A model generated the notes under the pieces. It ran no database searches. It had not been told where the DNA came from and worked only from the letters and a program-made list of their open reading frames with translations. Positions 4,892 through 29,889 of a stretch of DNA of 29,891 nt are shown piece by piece (the stretch's first letter is position 1; the number at the start of each line of letters is the position of its first letter). Source of the DNA: a virus (Duplodnaviria > Caudoviricetes); IMG/VR virus record IMGVR_UViG_3300044272_001923, positions 1-29,891 of that record; one strand, 5' to 3'. Both the position numbers and the translations under genes were made by a program.

Positions 4892-6154
4892 ATGGCAGAA
4901 GAAGTAAAAGTAACAGCGTTAGACGCTGAGCCAAAAACTATGGCTGAAAAAGAAGAAACGGTAGCAGAGAACGCCGGTATGCCCATTGACAAAGATGGTG
5001 TATACAAATTAGATCTCAATAAGTTTAACGAAGAAAATAAACAAGAAGATGCCGTTCAAGAGCAAAGCACAGATGAGGTTCCTGTACAAGATGCACCCGC
5101 AGATAGCGAAAAAGTGGTCGAAGAAGTACAAGCAGAAACAAAAGAACCTGCCGGAGAGAGCGATGCAGATGTGCAAGAAACACCGATAATAGAGGAAATA
5201 ACCGATGAAACCAATGAAACAAATACAACTGACGAGACAGGAGTGGATGGAAGCGCTGAAGCTGCCGACCCCGCACCGGAACAAGAAGAAGTATTACAGA
5301 AAACAGAAACACAAGAACCAGTAGATCTACCTGAAAATATACAAGACCTTGTAGATTTCATGAATGAGACTGGTGGAACATTAGAAGATTATGTAAAATT
5401 AAATGCAGATTATTCTAATACAGATGACAATACTCTTTTGGTTGAGTATTATAAAAAAACCAAACCACATTTAAGTTATGACGAAATTGCTTTTTTAATG
5501 GAAGATAAATTTTCTATTGATGAAGAATTAGACACAGACAAAGATGTAAAAAGAAAAAAATTAGCTCTTAAGGAGGAGGTTGCAAATGCCAAAAACTTTT
5601 TGACATCGCAAAAGGATCAATATTATAAAGAAGTCAAGTTGGGTTCTAAATTATTACCTGAGCAGCAAAAAGCAATTGATTTTTTCAACCGCTATAATGA
5701 CGAGCAAAAATCAGCTGAAGAATTATTGCAGAAGCAAACATCACATTACAACAGTGAAACTAATAAAGTTTTTAATAGTGAATTTAAAGGTTTTAACTTC
5801 AAAGTAGGGGACAAAAGATACAGGTTCAATGTTAGTGATGTAAATAAAGTAAAAGAAAACCAAAGTGATTTATTAAATGTTTTTAATAAATATGTTACAG
5901 AAGATAAACTTCTTACTAACGCACAGGATTTCCATAAATCTTTATTTGCCGCTTCTAACCCAGACGCTATAGCTAATCATTTTTATGATCAAGGCAAAGC
6001 CGATGCTATAAAACAAATGACTGCAGAAGCTAAGAACATTAACATGGATCCTAGAAAAACTGCAGACGGTGTTGTTGAAGCCGGCGGAGTTAAAGTTAGA
6101 GCATTAACAGGGGATAATAGTTCCAAGCTAAAGTTAAAACTCAAAAACTATTAA
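4892..6154 (+). CDS. Putative capsid scaffolding protein
   Basis: 420 aa, very acidic low-complexity N-terminal third (E/D/T/P-rich), helical C-terminal part; immediately upstream of the major capsid gene. Confidence 0.7.
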   Translation: MAEEVKVTALDAEPKTMAEKEETVAENAGMPIDKDGVYKLDLNKFNEENKQEDAVQEQSTDEVPVQDAPADSEKVVEEVQAETKEPAGESDADVQETPIIEEITDETNETNTTDETGVDGSAEAADPAPEQEEVLQKTETQEPVDLPENIQDLVDFMNETGGTLEDYVKLNADYSNTDDNTLLVEYYKKTKPHLSYDEIAFLMEDKFSIDEELDTDKDVKRKKLALKEEVANAKNFLTSQKDQYYKEVKLGSKLLPEQQKAIDFFNRYNDEQKSAEELLQKQTSHYNSETNKVFNSEFKGFNFKVGDKRYRFNVSDVNKVKENQSDLLNVFNKYVTEDKLLTNAQDFHKSLFAASNPDAIANHFYDQGKADAIKQMTAEAKNINMDPRKTADGVVEAGGVKVRALTGDNSSKLKLKLKNY

Positions 6155-6167
6155 AAATTAATTAAAA

Positions 6168-7610
6168 ATGGCAAATGTATCATTTTCGTTACCTAGTGAA
6201 TTAACTCCTTACGCGAGTAAAGTTGCTAGTTATTCGAATTATTTAAACTTTCACTCTGGAGATGGAACTCCGGTAACTGACTGGGCACAACAGTATTTAC
6301 CTGAGCTTTATAACCAAGAGGTGGAGAGATATGGAAACAGATCTATATCATCGTTTTTAAGAATGGTAGGTGCTGAAATGCCTATGGCATCTGATCAAGT
6401 TATTTGGTCTGAGCAAGGTAGATTACACTTAGCATACGAAGGCGCTGCTGTTACTGACGCAGGTGTTATCACTATCGCAGGTGGTGGTACTCACGCAGTA
6501 AGAGTCGGTCAAACGATTGTATTATCTGATAACCAAGCTTCTCCTACAATTATTAAAGCGTATGTATCTGCAGTTGCGGCTGACAATACTACGTTAACTG
6601 TACTACCTTATGTAGGTGGTGCAACTGTTGGTGCTGTATCTGGATTTGACACAGCAACTGATAGCGGATCAAACACATGTTCGTTCTTCGTTTATGGTTC
6701 TGAATTCAAAAAAGGTGATAGCGCTATGTCTGGTGCTGTTAAACCTGAATTTGAATCTTTCACAAATAAACCAATTATTTTGAAAGACAAATTTGAAGTA
6801 TTCGGTTCTGACGCTGCGCAAATTGGCTGGGTAGAAGTATCTGGTGAAGCTGGGCAAGGTGGTTACTTATGGTATTTAAAAGCTGAAGGTGACACAAGAG
6901 TAAGATTTGAAGATTATTTAGAAACAGCTTTAGTTGAAGCGGTTAAAGGTGATAGTAATACTACAATTGATACTGAAATGGGTGGCTCTAATGGAGACGC
7001 TGTCGGTACAGAAGGTTTATTTTCAGCAATTGAAAATAGAGGTATTGTAGCTACTGGTGCTTATGACGCAATCAATGACGTTATTTCTGACTTTGATTTA
7101 ATTCTTAAAGAATTAGATAAGCAAGGATCAATCGAAGAAAATATGTTATTCTTAGATAGAGATTCAAACTTAAAAGTTGATGATGCTCTTGGTGCGGTTA
7201 ACGCAGCAAATGCAGGTCAATCATCTTTTGGTGTATTTGAAAACTCTGAAGATATGGCGTTAAATTTAGGTTTCAACGGATTTAGAAGAGGTTCTTATGA
7301 CTTCTATAAAACTGACTGGAAATATCTTAACAACAAATCTACAAGAGGATTATTCAATGATATCAAAGGTGTATTAGTACCAGCTGGAACATCTTCAGTA
7401 TACGACCAAATTCTTGGAAACAACATTAGAAGACCTTTCTTACACGTAAGATATAGAGCTTCTGAAGCTGATGACAGAAGAATGAAGTCATGGATTACAG
7501 GTTCTGTTGGTGGAGCTGCTACATCTGGCGATGATAAAATGGAAGTACATTATTTATCAGAAAGATGTTTAGTAACTCAAGCTGCTAACAACTTCGTATT
7601 ATTCAAGTAA
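6168..7610 (+). CDS. Major capsid protein
   Basis: 480 aa after scaffold; WAQQYLPELY...ERYGNRSISSFLRMVGAEMP, FVYGSEFKKG, GTEGLFSAIENRG; codon usage of a highly expressed gene (TTC, AAC, ATC); followed by a strong terminator. Confidence 0.88.
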   Translation: MANVSFSLPSELTPYASKVASYSNYLNFHSGDGTPVTDWAQQYLPELYNQEVERYGNRSISSFLRMVGAEMPMASDQVIWSEQGRLHLAYEGAAVTDAGVITIAGGGTHAVRVGQTIVLSDNQASPTIIKAYVSAVAADNTTLTVLPYVGGATVGAVSGFDTATDSGSNTCSFFVYGSEFKKGDSAMSGAVKPEFESFTNKPIILKDKFEVFGSDAAQIGWVEVSGEAGQGGYLWYLKAEGDTRVRFEDYLETALVEAVKGDSNTTIDTEMGGSNGDAVGTEGLFSAIENRGIVATGAYDAINDVISDFDLILKELDKQGSIEENMLFLDRDSNLKVDDALGAVNAANAGQSSFGVFENSEDMALNLGFNGFRRGSYDFYKTDWKYLNNKSTRGLFNDIKGVLVPAGTSSVYDQILGNNIRRPFLHVRYRASEADDRRMKSWITGSVGGAATSGDDKMEVHYLSERCLVTQAANNFVLFK

Positions 7611-10410: not shown

Positions 10411-13400
10411 ATGCCGGAAATAAAGAATAATTTCATTCAAGGTAAAATGAATAAAGACCTTGATGATAGACTATTACCTAACGGTCAGTATAGAGATGGA
10501 GTTAATATTAAAGTATCTAAGTCAGATAGTTCAGACGTAGGTTCAGTACAAAATATTAAAGGCAATGATTATGAATATAACTCAAGTGACGCATTATCTT
10601 TAAGCAGCACTGATACTATTGGTCATTATGTTGATAATCTTACAGGTGATGTTTTTTGGTTTACTACAGATTTTACAGGAATTACAACTGATGATCCTAC
10701 GCAAATAAGCGGTAGATATGCTACTGGGTCTAATAATTGTAGAATATATTATAAAAAAATTGGCGCATCAGGTGCTCCAACTGCTATAATTGATAGTTTT
10801 AGATTAAACTTTTCAAAAAAACATCCTATATTACATATAAATAAAATTGATGATTTATTATTTTGGACTGATAATTATAATCAACCAAGAAAAATAAATA
10901 TAACAGATGCAATAGCAGGTGAATATACAAATGATGCGTATTTAGAAGATAAAATTAGTGTTGCACAATATTCTCCGCCAACTGCACCTAAAGTTAGAAT
11001 GTCATATGATTCATCTATTAAAAGTAAACATATAGAAGATAAGTTTGTTAAATTTGCTTATAGATTTCAATATGACAATAATGAGTATTCAGTAATATCT
11101 CCCTTTACACAAACATGCTTTCATCCCGGAAAAGACAAGGCTTTTAATTTTGGTGTTATGAGCGATACCGCTAAAGCAGGTACTTTAACTGCTGCGCAGC
11201 AAACAGAAGCTATAGAACAAACAACTGTTGAAATGGTTCAAAATTTAGCAAATGTTGTTGATTTGTTTATTGATTTACCTTCTAATAATGATAAAGATAA
11301 TCATGCCGCTTGTAATGTAAATCAAGCTGGCGGCGCCAGTGGCTCAAGCCCTTATAATATTGATACGGTTAATGGAACTATAGCCGACGGTAATACTGTT
11401 GTAACAGAAAGAGGTGATAATTATATTGCGGCTATTGGATCTGATTCTGGAGATGGAAATGGAAAAGCAACTTTAGGAACTACTGTTGCTATTGATGCTA
11501 AAATACCTTTATTAGATAATCAACGTTTATATTTCTTTTCAAGTATAACAGCTTATGCAAATAATTTAAATATTAAAAAAATACAAATATTATATAGCGA
11601 AGCTGGAAGCTTAGCTTTAAAAGTTGTAGATACAATTGATTTTGAAAAACAAGTTTTAAGTCCAACAGATTCAAGTATTAATAATATAATATATAGGGCA
11701 GAGCCATTAGCAGATAATAACGCTAAACTTATTTATGGTTTTAAATATACATATAATTCAACAAAACCTATACAAACTTTACCATCATCTGAATTATTAA
11801 GAATAAGTGATATAATACCAGTAAAAGCAAAAACACAAGAAGTTAGTGGTAATAGGGTTATATATGGAAACTTTTGGCAAAACAGAGATGTTACTGGTTT
11901 AGATCCAGATCAATTTAGTATTACAAGTGGTGATCAAACTAATTTTAATCCTCAATATTTACTTTCTTCTGTTAAATCAAATAGAGAATATTCTGTAGGT
12001 ATTGTTTTATCAGATAGATACGGTAGAATGTCTCCTGTAATCACGCCTACAGATAATACTGAATTTTTAGACCCTAAAAGTGGCAGTGTTGCTTCATGGG
12101 CACATTATGCTTTAAAATTAGATTTTACAGGAAAAATTGGTGACGCATATGCGGCTGATACAAATCCATTAGGTTGGTACTCATATAGAGTTGTAGTAAA
12201 ACAGGCTGAACAAGAATATTATAATGTATTTGCTCCAACACTTCTTGATAATATACCGTCAGATGAAAAAAGAACCTGGCTTGTATTATCTGGTGATAAT
12301 ATAAATAAAGTACCTAGGGATGTAACTGATATAAATACAGAAGACGGCACACAAGGTTCACAAACTAGTTTATTACCTAAAGTATTAGATACTAATGGTA
12401 CACAATCTCAACAAAATGGAACAGATTATATTGATATAATATCTATAGGTACAAAAAATGAACACGGTATTGGCACAACTATAGGTGATTTTTATTTAAA
12501 TGATAAAAATCCATTGTTAGCGGAGCTGCCTGACGGTCATGGTAGAAATCATGTTTCTGGTACTGAATTTGATAATTTAATTGTTTTAGAAACAAAACCT
12601 GTTTCTACCGCATTGGATTTATATTATGAAACATCAACAGCTGGATTAATTTCACATTTAAATGAGCAAATAGACTCAGGATTAACCGGTTCTGTTCCTA
12701 ACGCTTTAGCTTTAAGCGCAAATACTGTTGCTGAAAGTGCTGCTTCGGGAACTAAGGTTGCTGATTTAACAACTACAGATTCAAGCGGTTCAACTATTAG
12801 TACACCAACATATTCAATAGTTTCAATTGTTGATGGTAACGGTAGCAACAGAGCTGGTGCCTTTGTAATCGACGGAGAAGATTTAGATACAGGAGAAACT
12901 TTTGAATTTAAAAATAATAATGAAGATACTTATACTGTAACAATAAAATCTACAAAGGGTAGTAATTCACAAAATTTTGCAAAAACAGTTACAATAACAA
13001 ATGTTGCGCCTACACAAACCGTAGGATCAACTGTAAGTGTAGCGGCATCAACACCTACAGATACACAAATTAGATTTATAACAGCTGTAAACGGTAGTGC
13101 TAAAACAAGCGCAAATGCAAACGGATTAACTTTTTCAATACAATCTGGCAATACTGATAATGATTTTACAATTGATTCATCTACAGGATCAATAAAAATA
13201 GCAAATGCTTTAACTTCAGGAGATTCATATACATTAGCAATAAGAACAACAGATGTTGGAGGTTTGCAAGATAATGATAATTTAGTAGTAAACGTTACTG
13301 CATCAAACTTTACAAGTTTTTATTTATCTGAGGGTGATTCTAGTGCAACTGATGCCTGTAATAGAGCTGTGGGTACATTAAGATACCATAATGGCACTGA

Positions 13401-13581
13401 TACAACTCCATCAGAAGGAAATACTGTTTATACAGATGCACAAGGAACAACAGTTCTTAATGGAGGCGGCCAAACATTTGCATGGGCACCCGGTGGTGGT
13501 GCACATAATGGTAGCGGAACATCATTTTTTGCTACTATAAGCGCATCAGGTATAGTAGGATCAGTTACTTTATGTAGTTAA
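10411..13581 (+). CDS. Tail stabilization/nozzle-like protein (N-terminal part) with C-terminal cadherin-like domains
   Basis: 1056 aa; starts NNFIQGKMNKDLDDRLLPNGQYRD, has LLFWTDNYNQPRKINI, FAYRFQY, GNRVIYGN, YSVGIVLSDRYGR as recalled for crAss-like stabilization proteins; last ~290 aa are two cadherin/Ig-like repeats plus a small Cys-flanked domain. Confidence 0.7.
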   Translation: MPEIKNNFIQGKMNKDLDDRLLPNGQYRDGVNIKVSKSDSSDVGSVQNIKGNDYEYNSSDALSLSSTDTIGHYVDNLTGDVFWFTTDFTGITTDDPTQISGRYATGSNNCRIYYKKIGASGAPTAIIDSFRLNFSKKHPILHINKIDDLLFWTDNYNQPRKINITDAIAGEYTNDAYLEDKISVAQYSPPTAPKVRMSYDSSIKSKHIEDKFVKFAYRFQYDNNEYSVISPFTQTCFHPGKDKAFNFGVMSDTAKAGTLTAAQQTEAIEQTTVEMVQNLANVVDLFIDLPSNNDKDNHAACNVNQAGGASGSSPYNIDTVNGTIADGNTVVTERGDNYIAAIGSDSGDGNGKATLGTTVAIDAKIPLLDNQRLYFFSSITAYANNLNIKKIQILYSEAGSLALKVVDTIDFEKQVLSPTDSSINNIIYRAEPLADNNAKLIYGFKYTYNSTKPIQTLPSSELLRISDIIPVKAKTQEVSGNRVIYGNFWQNRDVTGLDPDQFSITSGDQTNFNPQYLLSSVKSNREYSVGIVLSDRYGRMSPVITPTDNTEFLDPKSGSVASWAHYALKLDFTGKIGDAYAADTNPLGWYSYRVVVKQAEQEYYNVFAPTLLDNIPSDEKRTWLVLSGDNINKVPRDVTDINTEDGTQGSQTSLLPKVLDTNGTQSQQNGTDYIDIISIGTKNEHGIGTTIGDFYLNDKNPLLAELPDGHGRNHVSGTEFDNLIVLETKPVSTALDLYYETSTAGLISHLNEQIDSGLTGSVPNALALSANTVAESAASGTKVADLTTTDSSGSTISTPTYSIVSIVDGNGSNRAGAFVIDGEDLDTGETFEFKNNNEDTYTVTIKSTKGSNSQNFAKTVTITNVAPTQTVGSTVSVAASTPTDTQIRFITAVNGSAKTSANANGLTFSIQSGNTDNDFTIDSSTGSIKIANALTSGDSYTLAIRTTDVGGLQDNDNLVVNVTASNFTSFYLSEGDSSATDACNRAVGTLRYHNGTDTTPSEGNTVYTDAQGTTVLNGGGQTFAWAPGGGAHNGSGTSFFATISASGIVGSVTLCS

Positions 13582-13602
13582 TAAAACATGTAATAATTAA
13601 TT

Positions 13603-14853
13603 ATGGGATATTCTATAGACATACAGTTCTTTAATACCTTTATTATAAGGTCTGCAAATTCCGCTCTTCATTTTGAAGAATCGAGAATAAAAGGCGGATT
13701 TAATGAGCCGTTTGTTGCTATTGGTCCAAAAGCCCACATTGTGGATGAAAATTTTGCAGGTCAAAGAAGAAGTAATGCTTTAATATATTCTGGCATATAT
13801 AATTCTAGAACAGATGTTAATAGAACAAATGTATTTAGTGCTGCAGAACCAATAACAAGAGCTTTAGATCCAGCAAATGGGCCTATACAAAAGCTACATG
13901 CTGAAGATACCAATTTAAATATATTACAAAATGACAAAGTAAGTTATGCGTTAATTGATAAAGATGCATTGTTTACGGCTGAAGGCGGACAATTAACTGC
14001 TTCTGGTGCAGCTGTTATAGGGCAAATAGTACCTTATCAAGGAAAGTATGGTACACAACATCCTGAAAGTTTTGCTTTTAAAGGTATAAGAAAATATTTT
14101 GTAGATAAAAATAGAGCAGCTGTTTTAAGATTATCTAGAGATGGTATTACTGAAATATCAAATTATGGTATGCGTGATTGGTTTAGAGATAATTTAAATT
14201 TAGTAACTTCTGATTATCCTGATGATAAAGCTGTTGGCTTTTATGATGATCATGATGACCAATATGTGGTATCTTTACAAGGATTAGCAGGTGGCACTGA
14301 ATATTATACTTTATCGTTTGACGATAGTGTAAACGGATGGGTAAGTTTTTATGATTATAGACCAGATTTTGGTTTTAGTCATAATAAAAAGTTTTTTACT
14401 TTAAATAGTAATAATTTATATGAACATTATAAATTAGATAGTAGCCGTAATACATTTTATGGAACTGGAAACGCATCATATATTACATTTATTGCAAATG
14501 CAGAGCCTTCAATGGTTAAAAACTTTTTAGCCATAGATTACGAAGGAAGTTCATATTGGGCAATGGAATCAGCTAAATCTGAAGATGGAATAAGAAATGA
14601 AGTTCAAAAAGCTTATAAAATTGATAACGCAGAACTTAGCTTAACTGGTGATATATTAAATCAATTTAAAAAGAAGGAAGATAAATACTATTCTCATATA
14701 AAAAATAATACAGGCGTTGTAAAAAACGGTGTTGTTGGTTTAGATACAGCTGGAATAGCAGGGCTATTTTCTGTAGTTCAAATGAGTAATGGATATACTG
14801 GAGGTGAACAAGAATTATTTAGTGTATCTCACAATATAACAAAATCAAGTTAA
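13603..14853 (+). CDS. Tail stabilization/nozzle-like protein (C-terminal beta-propeller part)
   Basis: 416 aa; LDPANGPIQKL, YGTQHPESFA, YFVDKNRAAVLRLSRDGITEIS, TLSFDDSVNGWVSFYDY segments resemble the C-terminal half of crAss-like stabilization proteins. Confidence 0.65.
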   Translation: MGYSIDIQFFNTFIIRSANSALHFEESRIKGGFNEPFVAIGPKAHIVDENFAGQRRSNALIYSGIYNSRTDVNRTNVFSAAEPITRALDPANGPIQKLHAEDTNLNILQNDKVSYALIDKDALFTAEGGQLTASGAAVIGQIVPYQGKYGTQHPESFAFKGIRKYFVDKNRAAVLRLSRDGITEISNYGMRDWFRDNLNLVTSDYPDDKAVGFYDDHDDQYVVSLQGLAGGTEYYTLSFDDSVNGWVSFYDYRPDFGFSHNKKFFTLNSNNLYEHYKLDSSRNTFYGTGNASYITFIANAEPSMVKNFLAIDYEGSSYWAMESAKSEDGIRNEVQKAYKIDNAELSLTGDILNQFKKKEDKYYSHIKNNTGVVKNGVVGLDTAGIAGLFSVVQMSNGYTGGEQELFSVSHNITKSS

Positions 14854-15249
14854 ATGAAATTAAATATACGCAGACTCGAAGAGTCAGACTATGAAACATT
14901 AGTTAAATGGTGGGAAGGTTGGAAATGGCCTGCTTTACCAAAAACTTTTTTGCCAGATACCGGCTTTATAGTTGAAAAAAACAAAATAGGTATAGTAGCG
15001 TGTTACGTTTATATGACTAATTCTAAGGCTGCTTTACTTGAATGGGTTATATCTAATCCAGAATACAGAGAAAGTGACAGAAAAGACGCGATAACGCTCT
15101 TAATTCAAGCCGTAGAGCATGTTTTAGCTCAACAAGGAATAAAACATATATTTACAATAGGTAGAAACAAACATTTAATAAATGTGCATAAAAAATTAGG
15201 ATGGGATGTTGATAAAAAACCATCATACGAAATAATAAAAAATTTATAA
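14854..15249 (+). CDS. GNAT-fold (acetyltransferase-like) virion assembly protein
   Basis: 131 aa; NIRRLEESDY start, WVISNPEYR motif A-like segment, HKKLGW end; position between nozzle and ejection genes as for T7 gp13-like genes. Confidence 0.65.
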   Translation: MKLNIRRLEESDYETLVKWWEGWKWPALPKTFLPDTGFIVEKNKIGIVACYVYMTNSKAALLEWVISNPEYRESDRKDAITLLIQAVEHVLAQQGIKHIFTIGRNKHLINVHKKLGWDVDKKPSYEIIKNL

Positions 15250-23251: not shown

Positions 23252-23386
23252 ATGGCAAAAGACGCATGTTATAACAAAGTAAAGGCAAGGTACAAAGTAT
23301 TTCCTTCTGCATACGCTAGCGGAGCTATCGCAAAATGTAGAAAAGTGGGTGCCGCTAACTGGGGTAATAAATCTAAAAAGAAATAA
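23252..23386 (+). CDS. Small basic protein, 44 aa (not in ORF track)
   Basis: Translated by hand: MAKDACYNKVKARYKVFPSAYASGAIAKCRKVGAANWGNKSKKK; begins 2 nt after the upstream stop; PSAYASG motif recalled from marine virus DUF5872-like proteins. Confidence 0.8.
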   Translation: MAKDACYNKVKARYKVFPSAYASGAIAKCRKVGAANWGNKSKKK

Positions 23387-23388
23387 TT

Positions 23389-23532
23389 ATGGCAGATCAA
23401 AAAGTAAAGCCACATAAAATGTATTGTAAAGATGGATCAGTACATGATGTAAAAACTTACAAAGAGCATAAAGCTTTAATGAAAAAAGGATGTGGTCATA
23501 AAAAACCTAAAGATGGCAGTAAGGAAAACTAA
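23389..23532 (+). CDS. Small basic His/Cys-containing protein, 47 aa (not in ORF track)
   Basis: Translated by hand: MADQKVKPHKMYCKDGSVHDVKTYKEHKALMKKGCGHKKPKDGSKEN; same TAATTATGGCA junction as the previous gene; fills the gap between neighbours. Confidence 0.72.
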   Translation: MADQKVKPHKMYCKDGSVHDVKTYKEHKALMKKGCGHKKPKDGSKEN

Positions 23533-23791
23533 AAAAGGTGCACAACTTAAACGTTGGTTTAAAGAAAAATGGGTTGATGTAAGAACCGGTAAGCCTTGCG
23601 GTAGAAAGAAAGGTGATGGTAGAGGTGTACCATATTGTAGGCCTAGTAAAAGAATATCAAGTAAGACTGTAAAAACAGCAGGTGAAATGTCAGCTTCTGA
23701 AAAAGCAGCTAAGATAAGAGAAAAGAAATCATTAGGTCAACCAGCAGGTAAGCCAAGAAGAGTAAAAAACGTTAAAAGAGGTAAAAAATAG
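23513..23791 (+). CDS. Small basic protein, DUF5872-like (92 aa)
   Basis: LKRWFKEKWVDVRTGKPCGRKKGDGRGVPYCRPSKRIS motif; ATG at 23513 (MAVRKTKKG) preferred over the track's GTG at 23492. Confidence 0.75.
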   Translation: MAVRKTKKGAQLKRWFKEKWVDVRTGKPCGRKKGDGRGVPYCRPSKRISSKTVKTAGEMSASEKAAKIREKKSLGQPAGKPRRVKNVKRGKK

Positions 23792-23808: not shown

Positions 23809-24111
23809 ATGGCAACAGAAATTTCTCAAGATACTCAATTAAAATTAGACCTTAAAACAATTGGAATAATTGTAGCGGGAGCAATATCTCTTGCAAGCAT
23901 GTACTTTGTAATGGCTGCTGACATAGAAGAAGCTAAGAAGTTACCCGTTCCTCCTGTTGGTGAAGTTGAATTTAAATATAAAGACGAAATGGTTCGTAAA
24001 ACAATTGAATTAACTCAAAAAGACGTAGAAGCAATAAAATCTGATGTAGAGTCTATGAAAATAACATTAGAAAAATTAGATTCAAGGCTTTACGAAATAT
24101 CTCGTAACTAA
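23809..24111 (+). CDS. Single-TM coiled-coil membrane protein, copy A (i-spanin/holin-like topology)
   Basis: 100 aa; one hydrophobic helix (IGIIVAGAISLASMYFVMAA) followed by heptad-patterned C-terminus; paralog of 25681..25986. Confidence 0.7.
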   Translation: MATEISQDTQLKLDLKTIGIIVAGAISLASMYFVMAADIEEAKKLPVPPVGEVEFKYKDEMVRKTIELTQKDVEAIKSDVESMKITLEKLDSRLYEISRN

Positions 24112-24470
24112 TGAAAAAAATTACTTTAATAGATATTATATTGCTTATTTTTATGTTGGTTGTTGTAAGTCAAGTTACATATTCTCAATATAAAGATGGT
24201 ATATCAGTAGTACAATTTAGTGCTGAGTTTGTAAAAGAAAATGAAATATCATTAAAAAAATTTAATGATCATAATACACATTTATTTTATTTAAGTAAAC
24301 ACAGTGAACATTTTACAAAAGAAGAAATAATATATATACCAACTGTTATATTATTTCATAACGGTGAACAAATATTAAAAATTGAATCAGGTGTTACATT
24401 AAAATTACCTGAAAATACAGCGGATAAAATAGAAAACGCTATTGACGAAATTTTAGAGAATACATTTTAA
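24111..24470 (+). CDS. Secreted thioredoxin-fold protein lacking CxxC, copy A
   Basis: 119 aa; signal peptide then ISVVQFSAEF (Trx beta strand before the active site), IYIPTVILFHNGEQILKI (cis-Pro loop and beta hairpin of Trx); no cysteine. Confidence 0.65.
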   Translation: MKKITLIDIILLIFMLVVVSQVTYSQYKDGISVVQFSAEFVKENEISLKKFNDHNTHLFYLSKHSEHFTKEEIIYIPTVILFHNGEQILKIESGVTLKLPENTADKIENAIDEILENTF

Positions 24471-24473
24471 CAT

Positions 24474-25676
24474 ATGAAAAAACTACTATTAGCACTTTGT
24501 TTATTAATTTCATTTAATTCAAACGCACAGTTTTTAAAAGAACTATATAAAGACTTTTTAAAATATGGCACGTTTTATGTAGCAGGAGATGCTTCAAATG
24601 CGTACGAACAAACATATAAAGATTACTTTGTAGAAAGACCCGCAGATGGCGATTTATATGGTATACCAAGAGTAATTGATGTAACTGACTATTATCCAAT
24701 GGATTACCGTATTGGCGTAGGTTTTAGAAAATTAGCTAGATTTGGTTATGAAGTAAAAGCTAAAGAATATTATGATGGTACTGAAAATAATAAATCGTTA
24801 TCAGCACCAACATCATCAGTTAAAGGGCTTGAATATTTATTTCATTATGAAAAAGAAAGAGATAGAGGAGAAGAGTTTTTTAATTCAAGATTTTTTATAA
24901 GACACGTAGGTAAATATCATATTGTTAAATTAGAACAACGCGAACAAGGTAATGTTGGTTTTAAATATCAATCAGCTGAAGTAAGAGGTAGATTACCAAT
25001 AGGTAAAAAGTTTAGTTTATCAGCCGGTGCAATATATCGTACACATCAAACACCATATGGTTATAATCCAATTGAAATATGGTTAAATGAAACAGAATCA
25101 TTTATTGATCCAGATGGGAATGAAATAGAATATCCTAAAAATCCCTGGTATACACTTGGGTATGAATATGGGTATACTGATAATTTTACTAAGTATACTG
25201 ATATGAATACTAATGAAGAAAGGTTTGATTGGATATGGAAAGATGCCGATGGCAATATTGTTGCTTGGAGTGATAGAGATTTCCGTAATAGCATATTTGG
25301 TGATTTAATGAACTTATATAATAGAGAGCAATGGGATTTATTAGACGCTTTTGGTGAAGTTGCACCAGTAGTTGGATTTGATTTTTATCATTATCGATCT
25401 AACTTTTGGCTTCATGCTTATGGTAATTACATATTACCTTACCATCAATATATTGTTGGTGATGAAAACGTAAGTTATTTAAATAGAAACAACTGGGGAA
25501 AAGGTGGATTAATAGAAGATTCACAATTAGAGCAATGGGATGACTATCAAGCTGGAATAATATTTGGCTGGAAATTAAGCAAAGCAATAGGAATATTTGC
25601 TGAAGGAGAATATACTAAATTTTGGGATTCAGAAATTTATAATTCTTCCGTAGGCATAAACTTTACATTTAGATAA
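24474..25676 (+). CDS. Predicted outer-membrane beta-barrel protein
   Basis: 400 aa; Sec signal MKKLLLALCLLISFNSNA|Q; aromatic-rich alternating strands (YRIGVGFRK, FSLSAGAIYR, VVGFDFYHY, FWLHAYGNY, AGIIFGWKL, IGIFAEGEY); ends SSVGINFTFR, resembling a BAM beta-signal. Confidence 0.72.
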   Translation: MKKLLLALCLLISFNSNAQFLKELYKDFLKYGTFYVAGDASNAYEQTYKDYFVERPADGDLYGIPRVIDVTDYYPMDYRIGVGFRKLARFGYEVKAKEYYDGTENNKSLSAPTSSVKGLEYLFHYEKERDRGEEFFNSRFFIRHVGKYHIVKLEQREQGNVGFKYQSAEVRGRLPIGKKFSLSAGAIYRTHQTPYGYNPIEIWLNETESFIDPDGNEIEYPKNPWYTLGYEYGYTDNFTKYTDMNTNEERFDWIWKDADGNIVAWSDRDFRNSIFGDLMNLYNREQWDLLDAFGEVAPVVGFDFYHYRSNFWLHAYGNYILPYHQYIVGDENVSYLNRNNWGKGGLIEDSQLEQWDDYQAGIIFGWKLSKAIGIFAEGEYTKFWDSEIYNSSVGINFTFR

Positions 25677-25680
25677 AAAT

Positions 25681-25986
25681 ATGGCAACACAAATTGGAGA
25701 AGATACTCAAGTACAACTTGACCTTAAAACGATTGGAATGATCGTTGGAGGAGCAATCGCTTTAGCGGGGATGTGGTTTACTTTACAGGGTGATATTAAA
25801 GAATTACAAAATGCAAATAACCCTGAAGAATTTGTAAAACAGATGGAATTCCAACTGAAAGACGAATTAATTCGAACAACAATAATACAAATTGAAAAGT
25901 CTACTGAAACGCTAAAAGAAGATATACAAGAAAATAAAGAGCAAATAGAAAAAAACACAGATAAAATTTACGAACTATCAAGATGA
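25681..25986 (+). CDS. Single-TM coiled-coil membrane protein, copy B
   Basis: 101 aa; MATQIGEDTQVQLDLKTIGMIVGGAIALAGMWF aligns with copy A MATEISQDTQLKLDLKTIGIIVAGAISLASMYF; shared EFxxKDE and YE(I/L)SR motifs. Confidence 0.72.
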   Translation: MATQIGEDTQVQLDLKTIGMIVGGAIALAGMWFTLQGDIKELQNANNPEEFVKQMEFQLKDELIRTTIIQIEKSTETLKEDIQENKEQIEKNTDKIYELSR

Positions 25987-26315
25987 AAAATTTAATTACA
26001 ATTATATTAATAATGTTTGCATTCGTAGCAAACGCACAAGACATAACTTTACTACACGTTAATGCAAAATGGAATCAATCAAATGACTATAACTTAAGAG
26101 GTATACGTCATGCAAAAGTTTTAATGGTTAATTTAGAAGATCAAAGCGCTGAATTAAAAGCACAAATTAAAGCTGTACCTACAATTGTTGTAATAGGTAA
26201 AGATGGCAAACCAAAAGGTCAATGGCAAGCTGATTTATCATTTAAATTAACTGTACCAAGAGAAGAAATACAAAATAGAATTAATTTTCTTTTATTTGGT
26301 GAAAGTAAAAACTAA
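25983..26315 (+). CDS. Secreted thioredoxin-fold protein lacking CxxC, copy B
   Basis: 110 aa; signal peptide ...VANA|Q, LLHVNAKWNQSN in place of F-x-A-x-WCGPC, IKAVPTIVVIGKDGK cis-Pro loop; no cysteine. Confidence 0.65.
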   Translation: MKNLITIILIMFAFVANAQDITLLHVNAKWNQSNDYNLRGIRHAKVLMVNLEDQSAELKAQIKAVPTIVVIGKDGKPKGQWQADLSFKLTVPREEIQNRINFLLFGESKN

Positions 26316-26779
26316 TGAAAAATATAAGTGAACACATTAGTTATAGTGAAGGTGTGTATAGTATTACAGCAAAAAGATTAGGAATAGACAACACACCAAA
26401 TAGCTATCATTTATCTAATATGGAGTTATTAGCAGAAAAAATATTTGAGCCTCTTAGAAAGCACGTAGGAGGTCCTATAAAGATCAATTCATTCTATCGT
26501 TCGCCTGAACTTAATCAAGCGATTGGTGGGAGTTCAAAATCGCAACATTGTAAAGGCCAAGCAATTGATATTGATGACACATACTCTTATATGAGTAATG
26601 CCGATATGTATAGATATGTAAAAGAAACTTTATCATTTGACCAAATGATATGGGAATTTGGAGATGGAGTAAATCCTGACTGGGTACATATTAGTTATGT
26701 AAATGAAGATGATAATAGAAATAGATGTTTAGTAGCTTATAAAGACGATAATAATAAAACAAAGTATAAAACTATATAA
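26315..26779 (+). CDS. Endolysin, peptidase M15 family (Zn-dependent peptidoglycan peptidase)
   Basis: PIKINSFYRSPELNQAIGGSSKSQHCKGQAID (SxHxxGxAxD) and WVHISY give the H, D, H zinc ligands of M15. Confidence 0.9.
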   Translation: MKNISEHISYSEGVYSITAKRLGIDNTPNSYHLSNMELLAEKIFEPLRKHVGGPIKINSFYRSPELNQAIGGSSKSQHCKGQAIDIDDTYSYMSNADMYRYVKETLSFDQMIWEFGDGVNPDWVHISYVNEDDNRNRCLVAYKDDNNKTKYKTI

Positions 26780-27168
26780 TGAAACTATGGAAAATTGTCC
26801 TTTTTGCGGTAGCTGTACTTGTCACTAGTTGCTCAATACAGCCAAAACCTAAATTACAAATTACTCACGTATTAGCTGTAACACATGAAGGTGATACTTT
26901 AAAATTACCTATTGATGTTATAAGACCTGTTAATTATAGAATTATAAATTATAGTTCAGGATATGGTTATGGGTGGAATAACTGGTATAGACCTTATTAT
27001 CATAATTATGTTCCGAGTTATGGAAACAGTGGTAGAGGTAGTAATAACAATAGCAGTAGTAATGCTGGTAGTAGTAAAAATAACTACGGTCAAACACCTA
27101 ATCCTAAATCTGTTCCAAGTACAGATAGATCTTCCAATTCAGCAACTGTCAAAGAGCCAAGGAAATAA
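26779..27168 (+). CDS. Lipoprotein (possible o-spanin-like lysis accessory)
   Basis: 129 aa; MKLWKIVLFAVAVLVTS|C lipoprotein signal; Tyr/Trp/Gly-rich middle and Asn/Ser/Pro low-complexity tail; overlaps endolysin stop (TAATG). Confidence 0.65.
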   Translation: MKLWKIVLFAVAVLVTSCSIQPKPKLQITHVLAVTHEGDTLKLPIDVIRPVNYRIINYSSGYGYGWNNWYRPYYHNYVPSYGNSGRGSNNNSSSNAGSSKNNYGQTPNPKSVPSTDRSSNSATVKEPRK

Positions 27169-27170
27169 AA

Positions 27171-27977
27171 TTATTGTTTAGATTGTGGTAAAATTTTTGA
27201 TATTTTAGAATATCGAGGAGCAGTCTTCATTATTTTTTGTCCTTGCATCCAACCTGTATAAGGAACCTTCCCCACACTTAAATCACTAAGCATATGCCAA
27301 TTTATTAATCCTCTTCTTTTAAGAGAGCTCATATATTGTTGTTCCATATCTTTATCATGTGCTGGTCTGTTTAACACATATACTGGCAAATGCCAACTAT
27401 GTGGATCGCAATTACTAACTTTACCACGTTTGTCTTTGGGTCTTGCTTTTATAGTTTTAGCAAAGAAATCAAAACCTATAAGATCAATACTTTTATATGT
27501 TTTTATTTTATCAATAAACCATATAATACTTATAAATCCTGCACTAGGTCTATAATCATTTACACCTAATAAATCTTTATCAAACTCTTTCATTATTTTA
27601 ACTAATTCATCATCAGAATACATTTGTGTATATTTAGGAAAATCTTTTGGTAATCTATCTTCTAATATCCAGTCTTTTAATTTTAAATTTCCTCTACATC
27701 TATTAATTAAAATTTTAGTATTTTTAAATTTACCATTAGTAAATTTTTTTTTTACATTATTATATGATGGTGCTCTAAACTGCCCTGTAATCCATATATC
27801 ACATTTAGTACCTAAAGATTCTTCTTGTAAAGGTGTAGCTTCAATAGCTCTACCAAATCTTACAACAATATCATATTTATCAATAAACTTTGCAAGTTTA
27901 TGATTCATAATCTCTACAGAGTTACCAACAAATATAATACGTTTATTTTTTACAAACTGTTGTATACTTTCCACCAT
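27171..27977 (-). CDS. Glycosyltransferase family 29 (sialyltransferase-like)
   Basis: Sialylmotif L-like RIIFVGNS...IDKYDIVVRFG...LGTKCD, motif S-like RPSAG...IDLIGFDF, motif III-like PHSW and VS-like HxxxxE (HDKDME). Confidence 0.78.
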   Translation of the reverse strand: MVESIQQFVKNKRIIFVGNSVEIMNHKLAKFIDKYDIVVRFGRAIEATPLQEESLGTKCDIWITGQFRAPSYNNVKKKFTNGKFKNTKILINRCRGNLKLKDWILEDRLPKDFPKYTQMYSDDELVKIMKEFDKDLLGVNDYRPSAGFISIIWFIDKIKTYKSIDLIGFDFFAKTIKARPKDKRGKVSNCDPHSWHLPVYVLNRPAHDKDMEQQYMSSLKRRGLINWHMLSDLSVGKVPYTGWMQGQKIMKTAPRYSKISKILPQSKQ

Positions 27978-28603
27978 TCTTCTGATAGTTCACCATTTTT
28001 ATATTCATCAAACCAAGGCCCACCATTTGTATAATGTAATGCTTTAGCATTTTTGCAATCATAATGTCCAACTAAACAATTAAAATCTTTAGGTATTGAA
28101 CCTATATTTTTTTCATTAATAAAATGAAATTCATGTAGCTGTGCAGGTGTTGCATTATCTAAATATTCTTTTGTTAATTTATTTTTAAATTGATCACATC
28201 TAAATACCATTAATGAACTCCAGTTCTTTTTTGGATATGATTTGTTTTGTATACCATTCATTTTGTTAGATTCTGCTTCATAATCATCATGCTTAACAAC
28301 TGCCATTGGCTCATTACCATTTACATATCTTCTTATGTTTCTTGGATCACCCTTCCATAAAAAATCATTATCACAAAACATAGCTATTCCTTTATAATTA
28401 CATAAAAAAGGTACATAAAATCTTGTAAAAGAAAATTCTGTAGATTCTCCTTCTACATCTTCTCTGCCATATATACCAGCTTTTATTAATGCAGCTTTAT
28501 CTAAATAAGTAATGTCTGCTTCTGGCCAGTAATTTAATATAGACTGCTTACATACTTTTGTAGCGTCTTTGTATCTTGAGTCGTGTCCTATAAATATTCT
28601 CAT
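27950..28603 (-). CDS. GT-A fold glycosyltransferase (GT8-like, plant CDI-like)
   Basis: MRIFIGHDSR, STEFSFTRFYVP, DxD (FCDNDF), YPKKNWSSLM, LHYTNGGPWF. Confidence 0.85.
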   Translation of the reverse strand: MRIFIGHDSRYKDATKVCKQSILNYWPEADITYLDKAALIKAGIYGREDVEGESTEFSFTRFYVPFLCNYKGIAMFCDNDFLWKGDPRNIRRYVNGNEPMAVVKHDDYEAESNKMNGIQNKSYPKKNWSSLMVFRCDQFKNKLTKEYLDNATPAQLHEFHFINEKNIGSIPKDFNCLVGHYDCKNAKALHYTNGGPWFDEYKNGELSEEWWKVYNSL

Positions 28604-28604
28604 T

Positions 28605-28949
28605 TTATACTTGTTTACCTGATGTTCTTCTGTTTATATCATCGTGATTAAATTCAGCCCAATATAATTCAAAAGCTACACCATTTTTTAATCCTTCAAA
28701 TTGATGGAACTTACCAGGTTTGACCATAGTAAAGTCTCCAGCTTTTAATATTGTTTCGTCAACAAGACCTTGATCATCTTGCCATACTCTTACGAGCATT
28801 TCACCGGATTCAACAAAAAATCCGTTCCATTTATATTTATGTTCGTGTTCTGAACATTTATATCCTTTATTAAATTCTATTCTGTGAAATTCTAATACAC
28901 CATTTTTATGTATCATCTTGGTATTACCCCAAATTTTACCTGCTTTCAT
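28605..28949 (-). CDS. Cupin-domain protein (sugar isomerase-like)
   Basis: 114 aa; KIWG start, CSEHEHKYK (cupin motif 1) and LKAGDFTMVKPGKFHQF (motif 2). Confidence 0.8.
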   Translation of the reverse strand: MKAGKIWGNTKMIHKNGVLEFHRIEFNKGYKCSEHEHKYKWNGFFVESGEMLVRVWQDDQGLVDETILKAGDFTMVKPGKFHQFEGLKNGVAFELYWAEFNHDDINRRTSGKQV

Positions 28950-28951
28950 TT

Positions 28952-29200
28952 TTATTTACTTATTGGTGACCAAGGTTCTTTAACATTCATATCAAATTTT
29001 TTATTTATATCATAGTACCATTTTTTATATTTTACTGAATCAATAATAACTAAATTATTTGGTACTTCAAACCATTCTCCGTCTGGCATTATAAAAGCAA
29101 CATAACCAACTTTTACTTTTGGTGGTGGTGGACATTCCGGGCAGGAATCAATATTATTTGTAAATAATATTAATACTAAATATATTATTAAATTTTTCAT
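28952..29200 (-). CDS. Small hypothetical secreted/membrane protein
   Basis: 82 aa; hydrophobic N-terminus, CPECPPPP motif; 4-nt overlap with the upstream gene. Confidence 0.55.
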   Translation of the reverse strand: MKNLIIYLVLILFTNNIDSCPECPPPPKVKVGYVAFIMPDGEWFEVPNNLVIIDSVKYKKWYYDINKKFDMNVKEPWSPISK

Positions 29201-29889
29201 AGTTTATTAAAATAAGGTTTAGACCAATTAGCTTTATTCATAAGTCTAGCTTGACTTTGAATTTTTTGTTTTTGTTTAGGTTGCCAATTAATCCAAACAG
29301 GTCTTTTGTTTTGTTTATTTGTAGTTACTTTAAATTTTTCTAATGTTTGATTTGGTTTATTTTTAAAGTGTATACTTATTAATATTCTTGGTCCAATAGT
29401 ATCAACTTTATGATATTGATATTGTGGAATGTATAGCAAATCGCCTGGTTCTAAAATAAACTCTTCAGCTATTTCATTTGGTTTAGCAGGAGCAAATTCT
29501 TTATATACAGTCCATTTAGTTTTACCTTCGGTATGAAATAAAAAGTTTTCAGTACCATCTGCATGAGCAGGAAATGATTTTGAATTAGCTTTAGGTGAAG
29601 CATATACATTTGCTTGACCGTGACCAAAATACTTTTCAAATTCAAAACATATATCAACTAAACTTTCTTTTTCATATTCAACAAATGGTATAACAAAAGT
29701 TCTATCTTCGTTAGTCCATTGTTTATACATTTCTTTTTTAGATAAAAGTATTTCTTGTAATTTATTATTTCTTACTTTATCTAAACACCATCGACCATCG
29801 CCTTCTTTACGATAATCAATAATTTGCAAACCTTTTACATGAGGGTATCTATTTAAATAATTATTAAAATCATTCCACGTAAATAAATT
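29197..29889 (-). CDS. JmjC/cupin_4 2OG-Fe(II) oxygenase (YcfD/ROXA-like), 5'-truncated
   Basis: ANVYASP...FPAHAD (HxD), EGKTKWTVY, LEPGDLLYIPQYQYHKV (distal His). Frame stays open to the window edge (NLFTWNDFNNYLNRYPHVKGLQII...), so the track's start at 29829 is not the true start. Confidence 0.85.
   Translation of the reverse strand, partial: NLFTWNDFNNYLNRYPHVKGLQIIDYRKEGDGRWCLDKVRNNKLQEILLSKKEMYKQWTNEDRTFVIPFVEYEKESLVDICFEFEKYFGHGQANVYASPKANSKSFPAHADGTENFLFHTEGKTKWTVYKEFAPAKPNEIAEEFILEPGDLLYIPQYQYHKVDTIGPRILISIHFKNKPNQTLEKFKVTTNKQNKRPVWINWQPKQKQKIQSQARLMNKANWSKPYFNKL

Follow-up and report, generated by a model that had tools for sequence, protein, structure and literature searches.

A conserved trio of a coiled-coil membrane protein, a cysteine-free thioredoxin-like protein and a predicted outer-membrane barrel as a candidate lysis module of marine phages

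Main

The 29,891-nucleotide viral DNA stretch IMGVR_UViG_3300044272_001923 (its whole length hereafter called the window) comes from a crAss-like podophage, as a fragment with a completeness of 46%, and carries five genes, here named A, B, C, A′ and B′, immediately upstream of an endolysin gene (Table 1). An initial annotation, made from the letters without database searches, described them as a symmetric cassette in which two pairs of a coiled-coil membrane protein and a cysteine-free thioredoxin flank a beta-barrel, coupled to the endolysin, and proposed that they form a trans-envelope complex. The five open reading frames (ORFs) lie where it had placed them, and the four overlapping stop/start codons that it listed are present (−1, −4, −1 and −1 for A–B, A′–B′, B′–endolysin and endolysin–lipoprotein). 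Tight packing is general here, with a gap of ≤4 at 15 of the 23 junctions of the window, and true overlaps are found only at those four junctions and one other. Pfam and PHROG scans place terminase, portal and structural genes and crAss muzzle domains upstream of the locus, which has on one side the very large last gene of the structural region with three small, basic ORFs after it and on the other a block of genes on the reverse strand. Here, we show that A–B–C, without the symmetry, is a conserved unit among the lysis genes of related phages, and we tentatively read it as a spanin-like bridge.

Table 1 Features of the five-gene locus and the two genes that follow it in the window.
Feature	Position	Strand	Length (aa)	Description
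A	23809-24111	+	100	Single-pass membrane protein, predicted N-in/C-out; transmembrane segment ~17-35, Pro-rich linker, C-terminal coiled coil
B	24111-24470	+	119	Exported thioredoxin fold lacking Cys; Gln after predicted signal peptide; Phe as last residue; predicted to act as adaptor to C
C	24474-25676	+	400	Signal peptide, predicted 12-stranded outer-membrane beta-barrel
A′	25681-25986	+	101	Paralogue of A, opens second module
B′	25983-26315	+	110	Exported Cys-free thioredoxin-like protein, separate clade, no terminal aromatic residue
Endolysin, M15 peptidase	26315-26779	+		Pfam Peptidase_M15_3 (E = 2.9e-16); phrog_894 endolysin (E = 6.6e-30)
Lipoprotein	26779-27168	+		Lipobox, low-complexity tail; optional, outside the fixed core

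Results

Loci around C were collected from the best 80 of 351 and the best 80 of 155 viral matches together with four contigs of metagenome-assembled genomes (MAGs), 164 in all, and counts were taken over the 91 distinct loci with 2.5 kb on both sides of C, the remainder being dropped; as the loci are related and only the best-scoring matches were used, these counts are not independent. All 91 carry A and a B that ends in an aromatic residue, so the homologues are linked and not scattered, which was the pattern that the initial annotation had named as speaking against a system. Gene orders are mainly C–A–B–endolysin and A–B–C–endolysin–holin, in both podo- and sipho-like backbones with differing neighbouring structural genes, and an overlap of 1 or 4 bases joins A and B at 119 of 184 distinct junctions. 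The five-gene symmetry did not survive the comparison: A′–B′ stands beside C in only 10 of the 91 loci and always as a second copy, so we take A–B–C as the conserved unit and the symmetry of the window as the addition of a second module. The coupling to the endolysin proved general, with an endolysin of one of two unrelated families within 3.5 kb of C in 81 of the 91 loci (70 M15 and 11 amidase, Amidase_2 replacing M15 in some relatives), whereas the lipoprotein, included in that coupling by the initial annotation, lies near C in only 14.

Distance correlation was 0.69 for A–B, 0.40 for B–C and 0.26 for A–C. Inter-protein covariation over 85 matched rows (effective number 41) gave top scores no higher than within-clade shuffles for every pair, the alignment being too shallow. 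An A–B fusion (P0271) and a C–A fusion (P0272) were considered as evidence of interaction and discarded, as both are single-member clusters, P0271 retains the internal signal peptide of B, and both are likely read-through errors. Marine metatranscriptome contigs from two studies match parts of C and of A′–B′ at high identity; they cover the rest of the stretch too, and hence are no proof of transcription.

A and A′ are indeed paralogues (47% identity, E = 4e-32). Each has a single N-terminal hydrophobic segment flanked by the invariant K16 and then a helix that varies by heptads: among 85 aligned rows of A, residues 71–77, exactly one heptad, are missing in 43, while K16, E54, K58, D59, R63, K89 and R93 are invariant. 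Transmembrane (TM) segments and signal peptides were read, here and below, from the sequence and with simple scripts. The predicted layout, an N-terminal TM segment followed by a periplasmic helical domain, fits that of inner-membrane spanins (i-spanins), with the orientation deduced from charge. Database matches of the A family are weak and generic, those in PHROG being to the holin family phrog_1296 (12 of 38) and to the Rz-like spanin phrog_739 (E = 0.022; 5 of 38), and nothing named above 0.9 was returned for A by the ESM Atlas. Spanins are themselves very divergent in sequence. An arginine at the tip of A initially appeared to mark dependence on C (128 of 128 versus 0 of 36) and was refuted as such a mark, since 9 of 22 new A proteins without C retain it; A′ lacks this arginine, which A proteins paired with an aromatic-ended B have. 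Divergent A paralogues with a conserved WPRG-containing insert (L059:1353-1658, L075:4299-4613, L053:7848-8183 and L345:5670-5972) occur as an extra gene beside C–A–B or stand alone.

The B-family profile matches thioredoxins in the PDB (best E = 7e-10), 27 of 44 members match Pfam Thioredoxin at E ≤ 0.1, and a structural model of B (predicted local distance difference test (pLDDT) 89.9) has a secondary structure that fits a thioredoxin fold with its cis-Pro loop. The thioredoxin fold that had been assigned to both proteins therefore stands for B; for B′ it is supported indirectly, through a match between the two family profiles (probability 99.1, E = 1.9e-18), given that the matches of the B′ profile, although all of thioredoxin fold, are not significant (best E = 0.17), nor is the pairwise comparison of B with B′ (E = 0.11). 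Neither protein of the window contains a cysteine, in agreement with the initial annotation, and CxxC, the signature expected of a redox-active thioredoxin, is found in 0 of 171 mature B-family proteins, which points to a redox-dead fold. Compared with PF00085, B shares the fold and the proline of the cis-Pro loop (P77, invariant along with Q26, A38 and F40), and differs in being exported, in having no CxxC and in the conserved terminal Phe of its C-linked forms (F119, present in ≥90%). B and B′ have no lipobox cysteine. Instead, Gln directly follows the predicted signal peptide in B, B′ and C and in 171 of 176 B relatives, and because this position is characteristic of Bacteroidota (PMC5837995), the window probably comes from a phage of a Bacteroidota-type host.

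The last residue of B tracks the presence of C. Of 193 distinct B proteins linked to A, the 149 of the main type that stand beside C all end in an aromatic residue; none of the 22 found where C is absent does, nor any of the 22 B′ that are second copies. The B′ sequences form one clade (Shimodaira–Hasegawa-like approximate likelihood-ratio support 98). On a B tree from which the final four residues were excluded, the loss of the terminal aromatic residue amounts to two changes, one leading to the B′ clade and one to L428/L432 inside the short-B clade, whose complete records yielded no C in a search that included a positive control. Two events are few, yet they run in the same direction, the terminal Phe being retained when C is present. 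That the aromatic residue was lost together with C on both occasions suggests that B docks on C through it.

C was modelled with AlphaFold2 (pLDDT 72.6, predicted template modelling score 0.64, residues 90–116 below 50) as 12 long strands, and its best fold matches are outer-membrane barrels, in line with the initial annotation: Tsx (Z 16.0, root-mean-square deviation 4.0, 192 aligned), EstA (13.9), KdgM (13.3), NalP (13.1), NanC (12.5), LpxR (11.2) and OMPLA (10.6), with Foldseek in agreement. Lipid-facing and polar residues alternate in 11 of the 12 strands, and the model thus has what is expected of an outer-membrane barrel, namely a signal peptide, an even number of amphipathic strands and an aromatic-containing last strand at the C-terminus. 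Though alike in fold to the 12-stranded barrels (Tsx, KdgM/NanC, autotransporter translocators, OMPLA and LpxR), C differs in its low identity (7–11%), in its large unique insertions, in its near-confinement to phage contigs and in having no sequence match in Pfam, PHROG or the PDB. Outer-membrane barrels of this kind usually have both termini in the periplasm, which would place the segment 87–117 of C on the periplasmic side and a 100-residue insert (192–292) on the outside; both are conserved. The conserved Arg, Glu and His residues lie on polar strand faces and H314 is nearly invariant; a deep alignment revealed no set matching the His/Ser/acid catalytic sets of OMPLA and LpxR. C may be an anchor and not an open pore. 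In some relatives (P0132, P0133 and P0148) the predicted surface insert holds Asp-rich DxDxNG-like stretches, at the place of residues 236–260 of the window C, which are reminiscent of calcium-binding loops.

Relatives of C are abundant, with 2398 in a protein collection at 90% clustering (354 clusters at 50%) and 351 matches in IMG/VR, and in the ESM Atlas they fall in virus-only clusters, the nearest named being outer-membrane protein families. A collection of species genomes contained C in only four contigs, all from MAGs (labelled Maricaulis, Bacteroidetes and Woesearchaeota), and another 300 genomes in the phylum sample contained none; for A, 400 further genomes gave two weak matches only. 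A cellular origin of C was rejected, as the gene context of the four contigs matches that of phage loci and they are likely mis-binned phage DNA. Two of the MAG records hold several C matches each, five in G005 (L084, L085 and L214–L218; labelled Woesearchaeota) and three in G007 (L082; labelled Maricaulis). An annotated phage collection returned no cultured relative of C, of A or of a distant C, and a long B found only true thioredoxins there. In record G312 (L008, ~5001-6188), which also holds A′–B′, the C gene is broken into ORFs of 177 and 122 residues, through either an assembly error or a real loss.

About 13% of surveyed phages have no recognisable spanin, Bacteroidota phages (Bacteroides, Croceibacter) being listed among them, and it was suggested that an outer-membrane protein could serve as the outer-membrane spanin (o-spanin; Kongari 2018, PMC6139136). 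A later survey reports only unimolecular spanins (u-spanins) in Bacteroidetes phages (PMC12596118), and some flavobacterial isolates carry one (PMC8776804); lysis is also known to involve factors other than these proteins, the holin and the endolysin, such as Lcc6 of LambdaSo. Neither B nor B′ is the linked lipobox lipoprotein that defines an o-spanin, and no lipobox, which a u-spanin has, is present in A, B, C, A′ or B′. The lipoprotein of the window has a polar low-complexity tail and no TM segment. Nine near-complete genomes were scanned heuristically for lipoboxes from every ATG, GTG or TTG start. Five of them (G003, G008, G009, G313 and G316, with one doubtful ORF in G316) gave no credible lipoprotein and the other four gave one each, of three different types; by the lipoprotein criterion of PMC6139136 the five genomes thus have neither an o-spanin nor a u-spanin. 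In G003 and G008, the only membrane or exported proteins flagged besides A, B′ and the holin come from one or two small, unrelated ORFs with a TM segment.

The surroundings are those of a lysis cluster, with an endolysin near C and an A–B′–endolysin–holin order in small complete genomes. A holin-family gene (phrog_3427, E = 8.6e-18; in Pfam only below cut-off) is adjacent in 33 of the 91 C loci. Among five podo-like records tested, four have it elsewhere, one of these being a relative that shares the layout of the window, and A therefore need not be the sole holin. A membrane protein of ~51 residues, holin-like by a weak match to phrog_920 (E = 0.0016), was found in 24 of 32 related endolysin loci without A–B, in 5 of 24 A–B loci and in 0 of 112 A–B–C loci; its profile was seeded from loci without A–B and the lineages are clustered, and this distribution is thus a lead only. 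The gene lies directly upstream of the endolysin (L350:5452-5607, L429:3842-4000, L465:5837-5998 and relatives) and could encode either another holin or a small protein that disrupts the outer membrane, like phiKT gp28. A prophage-like lysis cluster in a Bacteroidota-sample genome (L314:1486-2837) combines a weak A-like gene, an Rz-like TM coiled coil, a small multi-TM protein and a protein with a signal peptide, the Gln, a C-terminal TM segment and no lipobox. In the window, the lipoprotein has a short conserved N-terminal core, a Tyr/Asn/Ser-rich tail and a weak match to phrog_1119 (Cor; E = 5.7e-4), and unrelated lipoproteins occupy the same site in relatives (L040:6970-7626, G321 and G322).

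Searches not seeded on C recovered A–B′–endolysin–holin loci without a nearby C. In loci reached through the best 80 of 426 holin and the best 80 of 107 amidase matches, A also stands alone beside endolysins with no B in the locus (30 distinct proteins), and 28 of these 30 have 7–9 Lys/Arg among their last 20 residues. Hence, the A family in lysis clusters forms a series of A alone, mostly with a cationic tip, A+B′ and A+B+C, and A′–B′ is a separate, paralogous and barrel-independent module. Some solo A genes follow an amidase (L447:4746-5189, L465:6347-6802 and L479:5674-6129) and encode longer coiled coils with strongly basic C-termini, with no B or C in the locus. One C-less record, G315 (95,752 bases), has two A–B′ sets, two endolysins and two holins, and looks like two joined phages.

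Discussion

Taking the observed linkage, the place among lysis genes and the modelled folds together, we tentatively interpret A–B–C as a spanin-like lysis bridge anchored by a barrel in a Bacteroidota-type host, a reading to which we give a little less than an even chance. A would form oligomers in the inner membrane, and its coiled coil would bind the exported, redox-dead thioredoxin B, as the near-universal coupling of the two genes suggests. B would dock on the barrel C in the outer membrane through its C-terminal Phe, consistent with the joint loss of that residue and C. By analogy with spanins, once the endolysin has removed the wall the coiled coil would pull the membranes together and the outer membrane would break. 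A′–B′ would be a parallel unit without C that grips the outer membrane by other means, either a host protein or a cationic tail.

The likeness to two-component spanins (lambda Rz/Rz1) extends to an inner-membrane protein of type II topology whose coiled coil is predicted to be periplasmic, an exported partner encoded downstream and a location in the lysis cluster, and the combined periplasmic length of A and B, ~160 residues, lies inside the 62–300 range of such pairs (PMC6139136). Unlike in those pairs, the exported partner has a signal-peptidase-I-type signal and a thioredoxin fold instead of being an outer-membrane lipoprotein. The module also has a third gene, for a predicted 12-stranded barrel, comes in versions that lack B or C, and shows no significant likeness to spanin families.

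Several observations weigh against a lysis bridge. The weak PHROG matches of A favour holin families over the Rz-like spanin, and its periplasmic part of only ~65 residues and conserved cytoplasmic N-terminus are more like those of a regulatory or holin-type protein. B and C can each be absent, with A–B lacking C in 10 records ≥97% complete (whole-record searches with positive controls) and the solo A proteins doing without B too. B′ has no membrane anchor, and that of the window has no cationic tail either. No endolysin lies within 3.5 kb in 10 of the 91 loci, and 32 of 168 related endolysin loci are without A–B and show no spanin-like gene in its place, while the distribution of the ~51-residue protein can be read as A–B–C replacing a holin-type function. 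Finally, C has a mean column identity of 57%, a conserved polar lumen and the surface insert, none of which a plain anchor needs.

A lysis timer resembling T4 T/RI would account for some of this, and we consider it the main rival, though unlikely: A would be a holin or holin regulator, B its soluble, antiholin-like periplasmic partner, and C, as an optional sensor in the outer membrane, would pass a signal from the surface (superinfection or a solute) on to A by way of B and so delay lysis. RI, freed into the periplasm when its signal peptide is cleaved, binds the holin T (PMC8385771), and the predicted topology of A and B matches this arrangement, in which an inner-membrane protein that spans once and has a short, conserved cytoplasmic end is paired with a small soluble partner. 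The short cytoplasmic region of T is essential (PMC12162936), and in A the N-terminus is conserved with its invariant K16. The series from A to A+B+C suits optional regulation, C carries a conserved surface insert, and the ~51-residue protein is missing from every A–B–C locus, although the seeding of its profile and the clustered lineages blunt this last point. However, the periplasmic part of A is a short coiled coil and not globular, B has a thioredoxin fold, A–B is accompanied by a separate gene of a holin family, and no likeness to T or RI surfaced in the Pfam and PHROG scans. The T4 system is not known to include a barrel, and a timer would leave G003, G008 and G009 without a candidate gene for outer-membrane disruption.

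It is less probable still that the genes are an envelope-remodelling moron, in which C is a solute channel, a receptor decoy or a means of superinfection exclusion with A and B as partners, and the lysis neighbourhood merely reflects late expression. The best fold matches of C are small-solute channels (Tsx, KdgM and NanC) and its conserved Arg, Glu and His line polar strand faces, but a barrel fold does not reveal function and autotransporter barrels score nearly as high. Variable lipoproteins, one of them weakly Cor-like, insert in the region and ten loci are without a nearby endolysin, which would suit a moron; a channel leaves unexplained why lysis clusters that lack C still keep A and B, and four MAG contigs and 0 of 300 further genomes make no host channel evident as the source of C. 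Finally, A–B could be a pair and C an independent late gene, such as an outer-membrane lipase, that hitch-hikes with it. That A–B is found without C, that the distance correlation is highest between A and B, and that OMPLA and LpxR are among the fold matches of C would agree with this. Yet C never occurs without A and an aromatic-ended B in the 91 loci, despite changes of order and inserted genes, the terminal aromatic residue of B was lost twice along with C, and no invariant Ser-His-Asp/Asn set is apparent in the deep C alignment, so we regard the absence of any concerted machine as very improbable.

If the lysis bridge is correct, A–B–C may add to the two known spanin classes a third of different architecture that is common among marine phages infecting Bacteroidota-type hosts. 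In it, a phage-encoded barrel would take the place of the lipoprotein, and a redox-dead thioredoxin would couple the inner-membrane coiled coil to it; the series A, A+B′ and A+B+C would then swap one outer-membrane grip for another, and through the conserved surface domain of the barrel a signal from outside may control the final stage of lysis. We put this forward as a conjecture, with slightly less confidence than the bridge itself. On present sequence evidence, the trio has neither the lipoprotein of the two known spanin classes nor the CxxC of thioredoxins. A non-spanin route to outer-membrane disruption is known from phiKT, whose gp28 disruptin is a single cationic peptide of 56 residues (bioRxiv 10.1101/515445), and the cationic tails of solo A and some B′ are reminiscent of it, whereas the module described here has two or three proteins with acidic coiled coils and a barrel. 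Open-access full texts contained no description of an A–B–C module, although supplementary annotation tables of marine phages could still mention the genes. The possibility that an outer-membrane protein acts as o-spanin has been raised (PMC6139136), and A–B–C is a concrete and abundant candidate for it. It also offers testable handles in the terminal Phe of B, the barrel C and the natural versions without each, and two versions adjoin in this genome. Should the timer be true instead, it would be a surface-sensing lysis timer, likewise undescribed.

Other features of the window

The three ORFs that precede the locus (23252-23791) are tiny and very basic (44, 47 and 92–99 residues); two match DUF5872 halves or phrog_727, and they are retained in close relatives only. 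Further upstream, a crAss muzzle-like protein is split over two ORFs (10411-14853), the first with a cadherin domain, and is followed within the structural block by a GNAT acetyltransferase (14854-15249). The minus-strand block downstream (27171-29889) holds a GT29 sialyltransferase-like gene (below cut-off), a second unnamed gene, a cupin and a JmjC oxygenase, possibly genes for surface or virion modification.

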